DNA of 64,000 bases, taken from assembly GCA_021806925.1 (NCBI GenBank), contig JAKAPS010000004.1:1586-65585 (forward strand). Direction: 5' to 3'. Shown one piece after another: positions 15,346-26,970 of the stretch. The position numbers were made by a program, and so were the translations under genes. Each line of letters opens with the position of its first letter. Position 1 is the stretch's first letter. The stretch comes from a bacterium (GTDB lineage Bacteria > Patescibacteriota > Dojkabacteria > JAKAPS01). Under the pieces are notes generated by a model that worked only from the letters and a program-made list of their open reading frames with translations, had not been told where the DNA came from and did not search any database.

Positions 15346-16365
15346 ATGAAAATATATATATCTGATATATTAGATAAACCACAATTCAATGATTTACTGG
15401 TGTTAGTACAACAAGTTGAGAAATTAAAAACAAAGACTAATTTAGACTATATAAAATTAACCCTAAGTGATAAATCTGGTGTTTTAGAAGGTAAAATATG
15501 GGATAAGGCAATTGGATTATGTGATAAGGCTGAAGTAGGCGATATTGTGAAAATAACAGGAAAGGTTGATTCAACATATGCATCTAAACCCCAATTGATT
15601 ATAAGTTCACTAAGTAATACAAAATCAGATGCTGGAATCTTCTCTGAAATTAGTATTGATAGAAGTGATTTCTATAAAGAATCAAAAATACCTTTAGAGG
15701 AAAGAAAGGCTAGGACATTTAAATTTATAGATATGATAAAGAATGATCAATTGAGGGATATGCTTAATGATATTTTTAAAGATGAGAAGTATAAGACATA
15801 CTTTACATTTCCAGCAGCAGTTTCAATGCACCATGCATATGTAGGTGGACTTAGTCAGCATGTATTGGAAATGCTTGATCTTGGTGTATATCTATCAAAT
15901 AAATTTGATTATGTAAATTTAGACATTGTTTTAGCTGGAATTCTAATGCATGATTTTGCAAAAATATGGGAATTTGAAGAAGTGCAACAAGGTGTATTTA
16001 AATATTCTGTCCTTGGTAATTTACATGGACATATATTCATGGGTGCAAATTTTGTAAAAGAGAATGCACCTAAATATGGTATTGACGATGAAACATTAAT
16101 AAGACTAATTCACGTTGTATTATCTCATCATGGTAAGAAAGAATGGGGATCACCAGTAGCTCCGAAAACTCTTGAAGCTAGAATAGTTCACAGAGTAGAT
16201 GTAATGTCTGAAGAACTAAGATCTATAGATGATGCAATTGAATCAAGAAGTCAAGATATAGAGAAGATTCAAATACTTGAAGAATACTACTACTTCGGAT
16301 TTGTAAATAATGATTCCCTAGAGTTGGAAAAACATCAAACTGAAGAAGAAATACTAGAAAACTAA
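15346..16365 (+). CDS. OB-fold plus HD-domain 3'-5' exoribonuclease, YhaM-like
   Basis: The N-terminal OB-fold is followed by the HD motifs HHAYVGGLSQHVLEM, LMHDFAKI and LSHHGKKEWG. Confidence 0.65.
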   Translation: MKIYISDILDKPQFNDLLVLVQQVEKLKTKTNLDYIKLTLSDKSGVLEGKIWDKAIGLCDKAEVGDIVKITGKVDSTYASKPQLIISSLSNTKSDAGIFSEISIDRSDFYKESKIPLEERKARTFKFIDMIKNDQLRDMLNDIFKDEKYKTYFTFPAAVSMHHAYVGGLSQHVLEMLDLGVYLSNKFDYVNLDIVLAGILMHDFAKIWEFEEVQQGVFKYSVLGNLHGHIFMGANFVKENAPKYGIDDETLIRLIHVVLSHHGKKEWGSPVAPKTLEARIVHRVDVMSEELRSIDDAIESRSQDIEKIQILEEYYYFGFVNNDSLELEKHQTEEEILEN

Positions 16366-20199: not shown

Positions 20200-21516
20200 A
20201 TGGGAATTATAATCTCAAACATACCGCCAAAGGGTACATCAGACTGGTTTCCTGATGAATACGCTATTAGGTCATATATATTCTCAGTATGGAGAAAAGT
20301 AGTTTTAAGTTTTGGTTTTCAAGAATACATGTCTCCCATACTTGAATATTCTGAAATATATAAGGCAAAATCTGGTGAAGATATTGGTAAGCATGAACTT
20401 CTTTCATTTATCGATAGGGGAGGGAGAGAACTATCACTTAGACCTGAAATGACACCTGGTATTACTAGAATAATTTCAAGGATATATAATAAAGAAACAA
20501 AACCTATAAAGTATTTTTCTATTGCAAACTTTTTTAGAAATCAAAATACACAGCAGGGGAGGAATAGGGAATTCTGGCAACTCAACTATGATATATTTGG
20601 AACTGAATCAATAATCTCAGACATTGAGATAATACAAATTGGGATAGAAATAATGATCCAATTTGGAGCTACAAAAGATAACTTCCAAGTTCAGATTAAT
20701 AACAGAGAGTTTGTTGATGATTTCATTAATAAATATCTTGATTTAAATGAGAATAATAAAAGAACTAGCTTGATTGAGATATTGGATAAATTTAACAAGA
20801 TATCAGAAGAAGAACTAAATAAAAATTTAACTGAACTTGGACTTACTGAAATAAATATAGAAAAGATAAAATCATTTATTCTATCAGAAACAATTGAAGA
20901 TGTAATATACAAATATCCTGAATTATCAAGTTCAAAAGGGTATATTAAATTGAATGAATTATTGGATATGCTAGTGAGTATTGGGTATGGTGAATATATT
21001 AAATATTCTCCGCTTCTCTTCAGAGGATTCGATTACTATAATGGAACTGTTTTTGAAATGTTTCCTATAAATGGAACTAATGAAAGGTCTCTTTTCGGTG
21101 GTGGTAGATACAATGGACTATCTAAAATATTTGGTCTTAAAGAAGATGTTTTTGCTGTTGGTGCTGCACCAGGAGATGAAACAACCAAGTTATTTTTAAT
21201 TACAAATAATCTGTTACCAGAATATTTAAAGGTTACTAAAAGAGCTGACATTTACATCCCGTTACTTGATACTAAATTTTTAAAAGAAGTAATTGAACTA
21301 TCAAAGTCATTGAGAATGAAAACAAATTATTCAGTTGAATGTGGATTTGATCAGCAATCTATATCAAAGGCATTCTCATTTAGCAATAAAAATAACTTTA
21401 AATATGTAGTTATAATTGGAAGTGATGAGATAAAGGATAAAACATACACAATAAAAAACCTTTATACAGGAAAACAAGTAACACTTCCAATTAATAACGT
21501 AAATATAGATATATAA
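20200..21516 (+). CDS. hisS: histidyl-tRNA synthetase
   Basis: Class II motifs are present: LRPEMTPGITR, RNEFWQLNYDIFG (motif 2-like) and GGGRYNGL (motif 3). Confidence 0.85.
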   Translation: MGIIISNIPPKGTSDWFPDEYAIRSYIFSVWRKVVLSFGFQEYMSPILEYSEIYKAKSGEDIGKHELLSFIDRGGRELSLRPEMTPGITRIISRIYNKETKPIKYFSIANFFRNQNTQQGRNREFWQLNYDIFGTESIISDIEIIQIGIEIMIQFGATKDNFQVQINNREFVDDFINKYLDLNENNKRTSLIEILDKFNKISEEELNKNLTELGLTEINIEKIKSFILSETIEDVIYKYPELSSSKGYIKLNELLDMLVSIGYGEYIKYSPLLFRGFDYYNGTVFEMFPINGTNERSLFGGGRYNGLSKIFGLKEDVFAVGAAPGDETTKLFLITNNLLPEYLKVTKRADIYIPLLDTKFLKEVIELSKSLRMKTNYSVECGFDQQSISKAFSFSNKNNFKYVVIIGSDEIKDKTYTIKNLYTGKQVTLPINNVNIDI

Positions 21517-21634: not shown

Positions 21635-21928
21635 TTAATATGAATCTACCCTGTTAAGAAGTATGTTATATAATACTAATGCTCTCTCTGCACTCTCGTA
21701 ACTATTAAATGGGAATCCATATTTTATTTGATACAAGAGTCTTTCAAGTGATTTGAAATCTTCATTATTAATATAATCAAGTGTATTAAATAATTCAATT
21801 GATTGATTATTAAAAGATATTATTAATTGATTATTAATATCTTCCTTATTTTCGGTTATCAAATTAGCTACCCTTTTTAGATTGGAGGCTATAGATAGAA
21901 TCACTGTTCTTTTTTGTAAATTATTCAT
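21635..21928 (-). CDS. hypothetical small protein
   Basis: 97-aa ORF. It overlaps the upstream ORF by 8 bp, so the two form a two-gene operon. Confidence 0.35.
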   Translation of the reverse strand: MNNLQKRTVILSIASNLKRVANLITENKEDINNQLIISFNNQSIELFNTLDYINNEDFKSLERLLYQIKYGFPFNSYESAERALVLYNILLNRVDSY

Positions 21929-22268
21929 TCTCTAAAATCTTCTTAAAATATTTTTTAATTATTAAATCAATTTTTACTCTTATGCTTGTATCTAATACCT
22001 CCATGCTTTTGTTACTATCAGGCCTTATATTTATCAAGGAATTATAGTCAATAGTTTTCGTTATACAATCAATACCACCACCCCATAAATTAGTTTGTTT
22101 AGAACCATTCTCCAGTAGGAATTTTTCGCATTCATAATGCATGACTGTTCCAGCTGCCACAATACTTTGCTCAATATCAACAACAAATTTGATGTATGAC
22201 TTATATGTCAGCATTAATTCATTTATATCATATACCTTTAATTCCTTATTTATTATAAATAACGACAT
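21921..22268 (-). CDS. hypothetical small protein
   Basis: 115-aa ORF, divergent from the RSH-like gene. Confidence 0.35.
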   Translation of the reverse strand: MSLFIINKELKVYDINELMLTYKSYIKFVVDIEQSIVAAGTVMHYECEKFLLENGSKQTNLWGGGIDCITKTIDYNSLINIRPDSNKSMEVLDTSIRVKIDLIIKKYFKKILENE

Positions 22269-22469
22269 TCCAACTTCTTACTCCTATTATACTAATAATA
22301 TATTAGAAACTGAATAGTTGTGCCATTTCGTGTTTTACAAATGTTTATAAATACTTTATAATACTGAAATCTTAGTAAATATATGAGATATTGTTCCGTA
22401 AGACAATTTGGTATTTTGTTTTCAGTAATTATTAATACCTAATTTCCTACGGGTAGTTCCATTAAAAAT

Positions 22470-23468
22470 ATGGCTTCCCAAACAGGGGAGCCTTTTTTAT
22501 TTATGAGTATAGAAATAAAAGAACTTAATAAAAACAATCAACCGCTTCTTAATAAAACGGCTGATGAATTGGTCACGCTACTATTCATGCCAGGAACAGA
22601 TCAGACTTGTAAAATATCAGAGATGTATTCGTGTATCAGTCCAGAAGAATTAATAACTGCATACAGAATACTACACTATGAATATATGCTTTCTGATGAT
22701 AATACTATAACGGAAAAGCCAACTGACACTATAGAATCACTGCTTAATACAGGAGAGATAAATGAATACAATGCTACAGAAGTAATTAAATATATAGAAA
22801 GGAAGATATGCGATAAAAGGAACGGTACAGAGGTGGATTCCGATGATATTGATAATATTTCTGGTTGTGTTAGAAGACTTGCACTTGCAAAGATTATACA
22901 TAATTCAAAAGAGTATATTGACTCAATAAATAATTTAAATTCACTAATTGACTACAATAAATTTTCAACCCTATTAAATGAGTTATTTGGGAGCCAATTT
23001 ATAGGGATGGAAGTAAGAGTCAAATCCTTAGAATCGCTTGTGCAAAAACTTATCAGGAAAGGATTAGATAGAATAGATTCTGCAGGTGACATCATAGGAA
23101 TAAGAATAGTAACACAGGATATATCTACAACAGATGTCATGCAAAAAATAGTACATATATTATCTGTTTTTTATTCCGTCTTACCACAAAATTCAAGTGA
23201 AGAAATGACATATAAGATTATAGATGTGGATACAAATAACCATGTATCATACATGAAAATTCAACTTAAAATTAATGGTATACCTATAGAGATTATGTTT
23301 TCTAGTGAACATCAGGTAGAAATTGGAAAAGACCCATCTCATGATTTATGTCATAGTAACTATGAGTCTAGAAGAGCTATAAAAAGCACTGAAGAACTAA
23401 AACACATATTTGATGATATAAGAGAAAAGATAAGTGAAAAACTACTAGGTAGTAATCAATTCGTTTAA
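22470..23468 (+). CDS. RelA/SpoT-homologue (RSH) synthetase-fold nucleotidyltransferase domain protein. It is toxSAS-like and divergent, and has a roughly 180-aa N-terminal domain of unknown function.
   Basis: Residues about 183-305 align block-by-block with the Rel synthetase core. RVKSLESLVQKL matches the RxKxxxSxxxK motif. SAGDIIGIRIV matches DxxAIRxIV. NHVSYMK....GIPIEIMFSS aligns to NGYQSLH....GPIEIQIRT, with the catalytic EIQIRT replaced by EIMFSS. Confidence 0.5.
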   Translation: MASQTGEPFLFMSIEIKELNKNNQPLLNKTADELVTLLFMPGTDQTCKISEMYSCISPEELITAYRILHYEYMLSDDNTITEKPTDTIESLLNTGEINEYNATEVIKYIERKICDKRNGTEVDSDDIDNISGCVRRLALAKIIHNSKEYIDSINNLNSLIDYNKFSTLLNELFGSQFIGMEVRVKSLESLVQKLIRKGLDRIDSAGDIIGIRIVTQDISTTDVMQKIVHILSVFYSVLPQNSSEEMTYKIIDVDTNNHVSYMKIQLKINGIPIEIMFSSEHQVEIGKDPSHDLCHSNYESRRAIKSTEELKHIFDDIREKISEKLLGSNQFV

Positions 23469-23768
23469 TACTGATAGATCATGATGTATATACAGAATAT
23501 TTTTATTATTCTCCTTATACAAGTTGCTATCACGTGGTAATACACTAAAATCCATTTTATTATAATTATCAATAGTAACTTGTATTTTATTATGAAAATA
23601 TGGAATATTACCATAAAACTTAATATCTAATTGAGAAATAAGTAAATGAACAATGGTTTTGACATCTTCTACACATTGTAAGTTATTAGATCTTATTTCA
23701 GACATACTCAATATATACAACAATGTATAGAATATTACCAGTAATCTATACAGATTTAGACCAATCAT
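23445..23768 (-). CDS. possible small hydrophobic-N-terminus protein. It may be spurious.
   Basis: 107-aa ORF, convergent with the RSH-like gene and overlapping its 3' end. Confidence 0.2.
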   Translation of the reverse strand: MIGLNLYRLLVIFYTLLYILSMSEIRSNNLQCVEDVKTIVHLLISQLDIKFYGNIPYFHNKIQVTIDNYNKMDFSVLPRDSNLYKENNKNILYIHHDLSVLNELITT

Positions 23769-23795: not shown

Positions 23796-24977
23796 ATGGT
23801 CAATGGATTAAATGAGGCATATGGCAATGAATCTATATATAAACTGATTAATTTAGCATTAAAATCTATTAGTATCTTGAATAAGTTTACGCCTGATGAA
23901 AATACTAAGATAGAAGAAGTAATTGATAAGTATAGCAGTATAAACAAACGAGAATTTCATATTCAATATACCGAAGAAGATGGTCATATTCTTAACATAT
24001 TAGTAGGAGATGACGGTTCATTTGAAGCATACTATACAAAAAAAGATTGTGAAGAGCAACAAATAATTGGAATAAACAGAGTAAATAATGATGATAAAAC
24101 CTACTTAATAAATTTGAATGGAAAACACTTCTTATTAAAAATCGAATATTCAGAAGATGGAACACCAATAATACATGATACAATATCAAAATCAGATGAC
24201 AAATATAGACAACTAATATACCAAGTATTACTTGACTGGAAATATGCTTCAGATAAAATAATTGAAACATTTGATATTGCACTATCAATTGAATCGGACT
24301 TTAATCATATCCAAAACGAATTAGAAATACTATGTAAAGACGTGCTATATAAAATAGAAGGGGATGATGATGATGATGACGATGATGAGAATGACGATGA
24401 TGATGATGATGGGAATGACGATGATGATGATGATGGGAATGACGAGGACGATGATGGGAATGACGAGGACGATGATGATGGGAATGACGAGGACGATGAT
24501 GATGGGAATGACGAAGATGATGATGGGGGGGATGACGAGGATGTAAATGAAGATGATGGACATGATAGTGGTGAGAATACATATGATGGGATTGCTGCAT
24601 CAGGAAATATAACCAGAATGAGGGGTATAATGTATGCATATATTAGAATGGTAGCCGTATTAATAGATAATACTCTAATTGGGCCTAATTTTATTGAATA
24701 TATAGATCGGTTCAAAGATAAGAATATTCGTGCATCTATAAATAAAATTGATAATAGGTATGATAGATTTGAAGTAGTGTTTAATGAACCTTTTTTTATT
24801 AAATTTAACGTTAATGTTAATAATGTAGCAGATATTAATATTGAAAATATAGAAATAAATGCAAATGTAAATAAGTACCTACTTAATTTACTTTTAAATA
24901 ATAACCGTGCAGTCTTCAATTTATTTAGAACAATTTCACATATGATTGAGATAATAAAGGAATATAACAATGAATGA
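23796..24977 (+). CDS. hypothetical protein with a long poly-Asp/Glu tract (about 75 aa of D/E/G/N repeats). It is the first of three tandem distant paralogs.
   Basis: The 393-aa ORF is continuous through the repeat. It shares the ESIxxL N-terminal helix and the L..LLDW motif with the next two genes. Confidence 0.55.
   Translation: MVNGLNEAYGNESIYKLINLALKSISILNKFTPDENTKIEEVIDKYSSINKREFHIQYTEEDGHILNILVGDDGSFEAYYTKKDCEEQQIIGINRVNNDDKTYLINLNGKHFLLKIEYSEDGTPIIHDTISKSDDKYRQLIYQVLLDWKYASDKIIETFDIALSIESDFNHIQNELEILCKDVLYKIEGDDDDDDDDENDDDDDDGNDDDDDDGNDEDDDGNDEDDDDGNDEDDDDGNDEDDDGGDDEDVNEDDGHDSGENTYDGIAASGNITRMRGIMYAYIRMVAVLIDNTLIGPNFIEYIDRFKDKNIRASINKIDNRYDRFEVVFNEPFFIKFNVNVNNVADINIENIEINANVNKYLLNLLLNNNRAVFNLFRTISHMIEIIKEYNNE
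24361..24550 (+). repeat. imperfect tandem coding minisatellite with units of about 24-27 bp (gggaatgacgaggacgatgatgat). It encodes a (D/E)n-G-N acidic tract.
   Basis: Read directly. The antisense frames yield His-rich and Ser-rich mirror ORFs. Confidence 0.8.
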
Positions 24978-25791
24978 ACTCAAAAATGAGAAACCAATAG
25001 GAGAATCTATAAGAGAATTATATGGGTTCTTAATATTATTAAGAACCTATATATTCAGTTGTGAGTATAGCGAATCAGAAGAGACTGGAGTAAATAAGAC
25101 ATTCTACTTTAACATAAGAAATGATTACAGAATAATAAACATGAAAATAGATCAGAATAGTAATCTAGAGATATTTGTATCAAATATTATTTACGGTAAT
25201 TCAAAGATAAATATATACAGTCCTAAAGTTGACAATCATTTATATATAATGGAGCTGTATGGTTTAATAATAGAGTACAACTCAAATGATAGAAGTATTT
25301 CATTTCTGAATAAAAATGAAATAGATGTAAATGGAGAGAATAAGGAATTGCTAATAAGATTTTTTGATGATTGGGTAAAGTTTTCAAATGAATACAGAGA
25401 ACTCAGCAGCGTTACATATAAGATACAAGAAATTCTAACCGATAATAAATATAGAAGCGTTATTAATCCTTTTACCGAGAATAACTTCAGGATATCTGAT
25501 ACATACAGTCTAGATGCAATATATACGGATAAAAATAATAGAGAAGTATTATTAGTAACAAATTATCTGCAAGAAAATAAATATAAACTTAAATTATCGT
25601 TAAATAATATAGAGTATACAATAGAATTTACATTAAATGAGTATAATCAAATAATAGTTTTATCCTATATAGTAAATAATTCATATATAGATTCACCAAT
25701 ACTTAATTTCCTTCTAAAAAGTAACTGTATACTTGGTCAATGTATTAGAAATATATTTCGTGATGATGATAACCAGAATATAACCTATTAA
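24970..25791 (+). CDS. hypothetical protein, paralog family member 2
   Basis: Its start overlaps the upstream gene stop, giving an operon. It shares ESIRELYGFLILL, ..IEYNSND.. and the LIRFFDDW motifs with its neighbours. Confidence 0.5.
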   Translation: MNELKNEKPIGESIRELYGFLILLRTYIFSCEYSESEETGVNKTFYFNIRNDYRIINMKIDQNSNLEIFVSNIIYGNSKINIYSPKVDNHLYIMELYGLIIEYNSNDRSISFLNKNEIDVNGENKELLIRFFDDWVKFSNEYRELSSVTYKIQEILTDNKYRSVINPFTENNFRISDTYSLDAIYTDKNNREVLLVTNYLQENKYKLKLSLNNIEYTIEFTLNEYNQIIVLSYIVNNSYIDSPILNFLLKSNCILGQCIRNIFRDDDNQNITY

Positions 25792-25830
25792 CATACAAAT
25801 ATAACAAAGATATGGTATACTCACATCAAA

Positions 25831-26970
25831 ATGTCTATAGAACATAACAACAATAAAGAAGAGATACTTCTAGGGCTGCATAAACTTTACAATGCATTGC
25901 TACAATTGCCAAATAATCTACTTAATCCTAAGTTGATGACCGAGGAGATATTTATTACTCAAGATGGTATTCTTGTATATAGGAAACATGAGCCTCGTAT
26001 ATTAACATATACAGAAATCAAATTTGATATAAATTCAGGTGAATTAACTGTGAATATATCGAAATTTACAAATCTTACCGGGAATAAAGTAGATATGTTA
26101 AATGTTTTTGACCCTGCAGCACCCTATAACACTACTGATTCAAATAATAATCAACCAGCTTCCTCTAAGAATAAAGAGGAAACCTCAGAAGATAGTTATT
26201 TGGAAGAATACTCGTTAACTATTAAGGAAATATCAGATAGTAATTACATTTTACTTATTAATGGTAATAAACCAATAGAATTTAAAGTTTATGATAACAA
26301 TATACAAATAAATAATTACATATCATTTAATAATGAAATTAATGTAATTAATAATATATTAAATATGTGGAATAGTATGAGAATAGAATTTTGTGATACA
26401 ACTATGTCATTGAAATATATATCAGAAGTTATAAAATTGAGTCCTATAGATGATACAATTGGTGATATTTATGATATTGCATTAGAAAACGCTCCTATGA
26501 ATTTACAAATCATCAAAAACCTTATTAATACAATATTACACATGAAGGAATTAGGAATAGATATACAAGATGAATATTCAAGATTATATGCGTTATTTAA
26601 ATATGATTATCCAACATATATTGAATACCATATACATAAGCTTTTTAATGGAAATAACATCATTAAAATAATTCATGAGGCAACCTATACAAAATTAATA
26701 CCAAATCCTAATCCTGATGAGAATCTTATCGAAGTATATTCTAATAACGATGATAGCTTATTGCTATCAGTAACACCTATAAATTTAAACCAATTTCAAT
26801 TAACTATTTATTTAGGTAGAAATCAAGATATTGGTATTATATTTGATTCTTCCATGAATATATTATCTATTACAGGAAGTGAAAATCCAGACTTATTCAA
26901 AATGCTACTTCCGCAATTAAGTTTACATGAAAAGATAAATAAATTTAATCGCAATACTGATAATAATTAA
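25831..26970 (+). CDS. hypothetical protein, paralog family member 3
   Basis: Shares EILLGLHKLYNALLQL, YILLINGNKPIEFKVYDNN and ILNMW with its neighbours. Confidence 0.5.
   Translation: MSIEHNNNKEEILLGLHKLYNALLQLPNNLLNPKLMTEEIFITQDGILVYRKHEPRILTYTEIKFDINSGELTVNISKFTNLTGNKVDMLNVFDPAAPYNTTDSNNNQPASSKNKEETSEDSYLEEYSLTIKEISDSNYILLINGNKPIEFKVYDNNIQINNYISFNNEINVINNILNMWNSMRIEFCDTTMSLKYISEVIKLSPIDDTIGDIYDIALENAPMNLQIIKNLINTILHMKELGIDIQDEYSRLYALFKYDYPTYIEYHIHKLFNGNNIIKIIHEATYTKLIPNPNPDENLIEVYSNNDDSLLLSVTPINLNQFQLTIYLGRNQDIGIIFDSSMNILSITGSENPDLFKMLLPQLSLHEKINKFNRNTDNN

Follow-up and report, generated by a model that had tools for sequence, protein, structure and literature searches.

A RelP/RelQ-like synthetase module with a degenerate predicted active site and an orphan N-terminal domain in a Dojkabacteria-like bacterium

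Introduction

RelA/SpoT homologue (RSH) enzymes serve as a model for the retargeting of a single nucleotidyltransferase fold, which has shifted from (p)ppGpp to (pp)pApp and on to tRNA. The gene described here lies in a stretch of 64,000 nucleotides (contig JAKAPS010000004.1 of assembly GCA_021806925.1, positions 1,586 to 65,585), referred to below as the window. Its product is a lineage-restricted two-domain protein of a Dojkabacteria-like bacterium of the candidate phyla radiation (CPR, Patescibacteria), a group whose signalling is essentially uncharted. The open reading frame (ORF) is complete and occupies 22470..23468 on the plus strand, stop codon included, encoding a degenerate protein of 332 amino acids that resembles a small alarmone synthetase (SAS). 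The original prediction, made from the letters of this DNA, placed the ORF exactly. It took the product for a divergent stand-alone RSH synthetase fold with an atypical active-site box and an N-terminal domain that resembles nothing known, and this is supported.

The closest described systems are the stand-alone synthetases RelP and RelQ. In RelP of Staphylococcus aureus (SaRelP), the adenine is stacked between Arg78 and Arg112, and the ribose is bound by His190 (Steinchen et al., PMC5794853). The phosphates are contacted by Lys80, Ser84, Lys88, and Arg91, Mg2+ is held by Asp107 and Glu174, and binding of the guanosine substrate depends critically on the G-loop residue Tyr151 (PMC5794853). In RelP and RelQ proteins that synthesise (p)ppGpp, the ATP-coordinating and catalytic residues are all strictly conserved (PMC5794853).

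The toxic SAS (toxSAS) include FaRel, FaRel2, PhRel, PhRel2, and CapRel, with Tas1 as a further case. They share a conserved two-gene operon with an antitoxin, and the two genes often overlap (PMC7229694). Exchange of the G-loop Tyr for Ala renders PhRel2, FaRel2, PhRel, and FaRel non-toxic, and PhRel with a large deletion in the active site has no significant toxicity (Jimmy et al., PMC7229694). Pyrophosphorylation of tRNA requires both the Mg-ligand Asp and the G-loop Tyr (Kurata et al., bioRxiv 10.1101/2021.04.30.441581). Plant RSH1 is a long RSH in which the SYNTH domain is retained but inactive (PMC5633626).

The protein resembles RelP and RelQ most closely. They provide its best sequence and structure matches, they share its order of elements from alpha1 to alpha5, and their ATP-binding residues are identical to its own, namely the two stacking arginines, the K/S/K/R set, the Mg-ligand Asp, and the ribose His. 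In contrast, the identity to SAS proteins is only about 20%, and replacements affect the EIQIRT box, catalytic Glu included, as well as the G-loop Tyr and flanking K, H, and YK residues. The protein also has an extra orphan N-terminal domain of about 155 residues and is a singleton, whereas RelP/RelQ is a widespread family. Unlike the toxSAS, it is not part of a bicistronic or overlapping toxin-antitoxin (TA) operon, and it lacks the G-loop Tyr and the catalytic Glu on which their toxicity depends. Like plant RSH1, it keeps a recognisable synthetase domain despite the substitution of a residue needed for synthesis (PMC5633626). However, the degenerate SYNTH domains of long RSHs lie in multidomain proteins with an active hydrolase, belong to conserved families, and have one residue changed, while this module is stand-alone beside an orphan domain and has many.

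The interpretation put forward here, with about an even chance of being right, is that the protein is an ATP-binding degenerate SAS. It would be a nucleotide-binding pseudo-synthetase, and neither an alarmone synthetase nor a toxSAS toxin.

Homology of the C-terminal module

The Pfam family RelA_SpoT (PF04607) matches residues 183-275 with E = 2.4e-7 and a score of 31.5 bits, above the curated gathering threshold of 27, so the profile search proposed with the original prediction is significant. When all PDB sequences are searched with phmmer, the best match is RelP/YwaC of Bacillus subtilis (6fgk, E = 4.3e-5), and weaker matches are S. aureus RelP, a pneumococcal SAS, and one long Rel. This search reaches RelP and RelQ and has no match to CapRel (7ztb) or FaRel2 (8pu3) at E ≤ 10. 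A profile from 119 SAS sequences that does not include the target aligns its residues 180-318. A comparison by hhalign with the target-free SAS alignment has a probability of 93.9% and E = 1.6e-7.

The alignment takes in helices alpha1 and alpha5 of the family, beyond the Pfam core. The module thus extends over residues ~160-330 (22947..23459, plus strand) and resembles a complete SAS of the RelP/RelQ type, with the predicted order alpha1-beta1-alpha2-beta2-alpha3-beta3-loop-beta4-beta5-alpha4-alpha5. Helix alpha5 (residues 296-327, 23355..23450, plus strand), present in the MAFFT alignment and in a model guided by a multiple sequence alignment (MSA), carries the Asp of the family motif 'LDxKM'. 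This Asp is reported as invariant in 77/77 rows of the alignment (A2).

Structure prediction had also been proposed as a check, and its outcome is divided. The single-sequence AlphaFold2 (AF2) model is unusable, with a predicted local distance difference test (pLDDT) score of 39. The AF2 model of residues 165-332 guided by a 77-row alignment has a mean pLDDT of 68.7 and is consistent with an SAS, the alignment steering the result. As judged from its sequence, the protein is a genuine, very divergent member of the RSH/SAS fold with a novel N-terminal domain. For annotation, the Pfam label 'RelA_SpoT' or the name 'GTP pyrophosphokinase' should not be transferred to it as a function.

Active-site residues

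Two of the three sequence blocks aligned in the original prediction are correct. The segment RVKSLESLVQKL corresponds to RxKxxxSxxxK, and DIIGIRIV corresponds to DxxGxRxx. These two blocks hold most of the signal, and fragment 160-232 alone scores 19.6 bits. The third block was mis-registered, as IPIEIMFSSEH corresponds to the following helix, IAMDFWASLEH, and not to EIQIRT.

The register was derived by five approaches, comprising pairwise phmmer, MAFFT alignments of 3 and 77 rows, the target-free hidden Markov model (HMM), hhalign, and unanchored fragments. In all five, YMKIQLKING aligns to V.AEIQIRT, with VSYMKIQLKING on v.vkaEIQIRT, and IPIEIMFSSEHQVEIG aligns to the next helix, iAMDxWASLEHKixYK. 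The target-free HMM supports this register with high posterior, and the unanchored fragments 228-332, 240-300, and 255-300 reproduce it at 7-9.5 bits against the family HMM. It follows from the shared register that the position of the catalytic Glu is Gln265 and that E274 is the conserved Asp of the following helix. The claim that the Glu of EIQIRT is kept is therefore not supported, since Gln265 stands there in the best-supported register.

Residues were mapped to SaRelP through the family HMM, and the chain numbering was checked against PMC5794853. The ATP contacts and the first Mg ligand are all kept. SaRelP R78, K80, S84, K88, R91, D107, G110, R112, and H190 correspond to R183, K185, S189, K193, R196, D207, G210, R212, and H281. 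The residues of acceptor binding and catalysis are all replaced, with SaRelP K147, Y151, H155, E174, Q176, R178, T179, Y194, and K195 corresponding to Q240, E245, K249, Q265, K267, N269, G270, I285, and G286. The position of the G-loop Tyr is E245, or E244 in two alignments. Of the 119 family members sampled, 118-119 carry the SaRelP residue at each replaced position, K195 (113/119) excepted. The catalytic Glu and each of K147, Y151, and H155 occur in 119/119, and the Q, R, and T of EIQIRT in 118/119.

Five plus-strand segments carry these residues. The motif RVKSLESLVQKLIR (23016..23057) contains R183, K185, S189, K193, and R196, which are the adenine-stacking Arg and the triphosphate contacts. 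It is kept, and all 119 family members share its R, K, and K. The motif DIIGIR (23088..23105) comprises D207 as first Mg2+ ligand, G210, and R212 as second adenine-stacking Arg, and is kept and family-invariant. The G-loop region YSVLPQNSSEEMTYK (23172..23216) is degenerate. Its scaffold residues Y235 and P239 are kept, while K is replaced by Q240, Tyr by E244/E245, and H by K249 or Y248, the register within the loop varying by one residue among methods. The degenerate 'EIQIRT' box reads QLKING (23262..23279), in which Gln265 replaces Glu, K267 replaces Q, N269 replaces R, and G270 replaces T. Helix alpha4, IPIEIMFSSEHQVEIG (23280..23327), has E274 at the place of SaRelP D183 and H281 at that of His190, the latter kept, whereas the terminal YK is replaced by I285/G286. 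This segment, a helix in the MSA-guided model, is the stretch that had been read as EIQIRT.

As aligned, the changes are systematic, leaving the donor half-site intact while the acceptor and catalytic half is exchanged throughout. The original prediction described changes of Q, R, and T in the box; the exchange extends to the G-loop Tyr and to seven further invariant residues on the acceptor side. RSH synthetases are characterised by a catalytic Glu, which is the second Mg2+ ligand, and by a G-loop Tyr that stacks on the acceptor base. Here these positions are occupied by Gln265 and by Glu244 or Glu245. A protein lacking this Glu, this Tyr, and the remaining acceptor-site residues is unlikely to catalyse the canonical RSH reaction. 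What is stated on Glu mutants draws on the role as Mg ligand described in PMC5794853 and on general knowledge, and a literature search for the synthetase-dead mutants E139V/E154V found nothing usable.

N-terminal domain and coding status

The orphan N-terminal domain comprises residues 1-155 (22470..22934, plus strand) and is predicted to be mostly helical. Helices appear in it in the single-sequence AF2 model, the low-confidence model already mentioned. The N-terminal ~155-175 residues have no match in the Pfam, NCBIfam, PADLOC, or PHROG profiles, and the domain has no PDB sequence match at E ≤ 10. That this part resembles nothing known, as had been claimed, is thus borne out in both the profile libraries and the PDB. 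The long RSHs (Rel, RelA, SpoT) have an HD hydrolase or pseudo-hydrolase domain at the N-terminus and TGS/ACT regulatory domains at the C-terminus. Here the N-terminal domain has no match to the HD, HD_4, TGS, or ACT profiles, and the protein ends about 45 residues past the SYNTH core. A His-Asp dipeptide is not found in the sequence of the N-terminal domain.

Codon usage was scored as log-odds, with 23 confident genes of the window as training set. The in-frame signal is flat at 0.34-0.42 bits/codon in 7/7 segments of the ORF, and the other frames score -0.7 to -0.8. The ORF lies inside the range of neighbouring genes, 0.24-0.54. Because the signal is flat and positive, the whole ORF, including the orphan N-terminal part at a level like the rest, behaves as coding. 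The identical protein is present on three public contigs, from NCBI, ENA, and Logan (SRR13206618).

Distribution and host lineage

The protein is a singleton, and searches gave only itself or noise. No relative was found by a word-indexed search of 5.8 billion cluster representatives, by exhaustive phmmer against 1.84 billion representatives of ~15 billion proteins, or in 185,579 GTDB species genomes, JGI metagenome contigs, or IMG/VR viral contigs. A homologue search with the C-terminal domain alone had no match at E ≤ 10. The sole other real match among the 1.84 billion representatives is an ordinary tandem SAS (P0003, E = 6e-4). This protein has 425 amino acids and a duplicated-SAS architecture, with two tandem RelP/RelQ-like modules whose EIQLRT boxes are both intact. 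A further exhaustive phmmer match (P0002) is a repeat artefact.

Since the protein is a singleton, its architecture is not a widespread housekeeping one, a case that the original prediction had named as speaking against it. None of the contrary outcomes that it had listed was observed.

The best matches of the neighbouring HisS are from Dojkabacteria, metagenome-assembled genomes labelled as Saccharibacteria, Moraniibacteriota, CPR3, and WWE3, at only 42-49% identity, and they identify the host as a CPR (Patescibacteria) bacterium. HisS of the host is at most 49% identical to that of any of the 185,579 GTDB species representatives, which do not include the target contig. This distance indicates that the genome belongs to a deep, poorly sampled CPR lineage, and the number of orphan genes is inflated by that alone. 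In 23 related CPR hisS loci there is no homologue of the target or of its neighbours and no RSH gene. A weak match at one of the hisS loci (L015) is a release factor and not an RSH.

Proposed function and alternative explanations

In the proposed mechanism, a complete, highly diverged RelP/RelQ-type SAS module (~160-330) follows, in one polypeptide, the orphan helical N-terminal domain (~1-155). The module would still bind ATP or another nucleoside triphosphate. It would not carry out the canonical Mg2+-dependent pyrophosphoryl transfer to the 3'-OH of GDP/GTP, ADP/ATP, or tRNA-A76. It would most likely act instead as a regulatory or sensor unit with its output through the N-terminal domain, encoded by a gene that appears to stand alone, outside any TA operon. 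Retention of all ATP-site residues at such low identity, together with the preserved secondary-structure layout, argues for continued nucleotide binding over random decay. A stand-alone SAS that has the donor half-site while its acceptor and catalytic residues are all replaced would represent a natural pseudo-synthetase or a further retargeting of the fold. We know of no earlier case of either outcome in a stand-alone SAS.

Several points weigh against this interpretation. With one sequence only, there is no evolutionary conservation showing selection on any residue. A comparative test is accordingly impossible, the value of the case is limited, and function is left to experiment. Retention of the ATP site is partly an ascertainment effect, as the same motifs make the homology detectable. 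Residues 228-332 alone find no RSH in the PDB by phmmer, so the second half of the domain is aligned weakly in absolute terms, and its unanchored fragments reach only the 7-9.5 bits given above. The MSA-guided AF2 model inherits the alignment and hence provides consistency, not independent proof. In the single-sequence AF2 model, residues 271-279 form a strand and not a helix (pLDDT < 55), which would fit E274 as the catalytic Glu. Gln is still able to ligate Mg2+, and the acidic residues E244, E245, and E274 nearby could rebuild a catalytic centre.

Such a rebuilt centre is the basis of the main rival explanation, possible though on balance unlikely, in which the protein is an active pyrophosphokinase or nucleotidyltransferase. 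It would use the ATP donor site to pass pyrophosphate (or AMP) to a different acceptor, possibly non-nucleotide or cationic given the acidic Glu-Glu loop, and E274, E244, E245, or Gln265 would complete the metal site. The fully kept donor site in a protein otherwise so diverged is in line with this, as are the clearly coding ORF and the nature of the changes, which look like replacement and not deletion, with loop and strand lengths nearly preserved. The RSH family has also switched its acceptor repeatedly, between GDP/GTP, ATP/ADP, and tRNA (PMC7229694, bioRxiv 10.1101/2021.04.30.441581). However, the strand aligned to beta5 (S260-I268) is without any carboxylate, the characterised RSH enzymes cited all use an Asp/Glu pair (PMC5794853), and there are no homologues to show conservation of the new residues. 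A more elaborate version has only a small probability. According to it, the protein would be the sole sampled member of a new SAS-derived enzyme class, with the RSH ATP-donor site, a rebuilt acidic acceptor pocket, a Gln/Lys strand, and a non-canonical substrate, expressed under an undescribed structured leader RNA with an intrinsic terminator (a candidate riboswitch or attenuator) in a genome whose other mRNAs are short-leadered or leaderless. The opposite view, that the gene is a decaying or functionless relic, derived from an SAS or a truncated long Rel in a reduced genome that evolves fast, with no selection on the active site, is rather improbable. It would account for the singleton status without a detectable orthologue even in the nearest sampled relatives, for the loss of nine invariant catalytic and acceptor residues, and for the other orphan ORFs all around. 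Against it, the 332-codon ORF is uninterrupted in a genome of 29% GC, where the chance of surviving stop-free is estimated at ~1e-12, and its codon-usage signal is uniform and gene-like. Decay would also need to be selective, sparing every ATP-site residue and the complete SAS secondary-structure layout, alpha1 and alpha5 included.

The toxin explanation, which formed part of the original prediction, is very unlikely. It supposes a toxSAS-type toxin in a TA or anti-phage module, neutralised by a nearby small ORF or, as in CapRel, by its own extra domain. The catalytic Glu is absent, and so is the G-loop Tyr, which is essential in every toxSAS tested. There is no co-directional adjacent or overlapping partner, the neighbours being divergent (the DUF5674 and 97-aa ORFs) or convergent (the 107-aa ORF, signal 0.13). 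The neighbourhood is not conserved because the target is a singleton, and the neighbours have no phage or defence profile matches. The closest sequence matches are the non-toxic RelP/RelQ, the PDB search having missed both CapRel and FaRel2. It is more improbable still that the protein originated as the remnant of a housekeeping long RSH, with a helical pseudo-hydrolase and a SYNTH domain, that lost its C-terminal regulatory domains. The architecture, a helical N-terminal domain followed by SYNTH, and the position between hisS and ruvABC recall this origin, as relA of B. subtilis presumably also lies near hisS and ruv genes. However, the N-terminal domain has neither an HD/HD_4 profile match nor a His-Asp dipeptide, and it is ~58 residues shorter than what we take to be the extent of the Rel hydrolase domain (from the offset of the Rel alignment in the PDB search). 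The SYNTH module is nearest to RelP/RelQ, with alpha1 and alpha5, whereas long RSHs match only residues 169-230, and an RSH gene occurs in 0/23 related hisS loci. The long-Rel origin was rejected on the lack of an HD signal and on RelP/RelQ being the closest relatives.

Upstream leader

The best promoter-like site upstream of the gene is TTTACA-17-TATAAT at 22334..22362 (plus strand), a consensus match only, at 11/12 positions. This AT-rich region shows no enrichment of promoter-like sites. A putative structured leader of ~100-130 nt was located at 22369..22502 (plus strand) by the terminator scan and the fold z-score. It ends in a GC-rich 8-bp hairpin with a T-run (22472-22502), ~100 nt past the promoter-like site. 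The annotated ATG and this hairpin overlap; M12, at 22503, is the next ATG in frame. The terminator scan found 3 sites against 0.3 expected, and the 143-nt leader stretch folds better than its shuffles (z = -3.1). The leader contains no tandem repeats and belongs to no Rfam family at the gathering score, the best being Phe_leader with 29.5 bits against a cut-off of 55, a score driven by the terminator. It could be an attenuator or riboswitch-like element, a separate small RNA, or a coincidence.

A Shine-Dalgarno sequence is nearly absent before the start codons of the window (39 gene starts). In many genes, the ATG is preceded at only 7-20 nt by a TATAAT-like box, often of a TGnTATAAT-like form, which suggests that the mRNAs of this CPR genome are mostly leaderless or have very short leaders. 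The leader stands out because of these two habits of the genome's genes. A second terminator-like hairpin, of 12 pairs with a T-run, lies at 22537-22565 on the minus strand, antisense within codons 23-32 of the target, and no minus-strand gene ends near it.

Gene neighbourhood

The gene hisS (20200-21516, plus strand) is upstream of the target. Downstream are three consecutive ORFs, a membrane protein, and then ruvB/ruvA/ruvC/yebC, so the position between hisS and the ruv genes is as originally described. A divergent pair of genes with an 8-nt overlap lies at 21635-22268 on the minus strand. It consists of a DUF5674 protein of 115 amino acids (21921-22268, Pfam E = 1e-26) and an orphan ORF of 97 amino acids (21635-21928). 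The pair is TA-like in size and overlap, but nothing identifies its function, as neither ORF has an informative PDB match and no literature was found. An ORF of 107 amino acids with a hydrophobic N-terminus (23445-23768, minus strand) is convergent and overlaps the last 24 nt of the target. It may be no real gene, because its codon-usage signal of 0.13 bits/codon is the weakest of the region.

The three consecutive ORFs encode 393, 273, and 379 amino acids (23796-26970, plus strand), and none has a family match. They had been described as a paralog array, for which no support emerged: no BLASTP match at E < 1 connects them, and Smith-Waterman z-scores against shuffles are at most 1.1.

No co-directional ORF of at least 20 amino acids adjoins the target or overlaps it. 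In PADLOC the sole match is a marginal one to PDC-S33 (E = 1e-3), over the two N-terminal motifs of the synthetase module, with none for the neighbours, and the PHROGs give nothing significant for the target or its neighbours. The block does not differ from its flanks in GC content. No tested feature marks the region as a TA or defence locus. The suggested toxSAS-like or defence context is thus unsupported, with no partner ORF, no defence or phage profile match, and the G-loop Tyr gone. A type III TA layout, consisting of promoter, repeat RNA, terminator, and toxin, was rejected on the absence of tandem repeats in 22260-22640.

Within the 64-kb window, an HMM scan of all ORFs of at least 70 amino acids detected no RSH gene besides the target. 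A protein of 339 amino acids (15346-16365, plus strand) combines an OB-fold (tRNA_anti-codon) with an HD domain, an architecture that we take to be that of a YhaM-type nuclease and not of a SpoT-type hydrolase. The 393-aa ORF (23796-24977) contains a near-pure acidic tract of ~78 residues (24348-24581, plus strand), with runs of D/E broken by G/N, such as DDDDDDDENDDDDDDGNDDDDDDGNDEDDDGNDEDDDDG. Because of this tract, other frames and the opposite strand contain long spurious ORFs.

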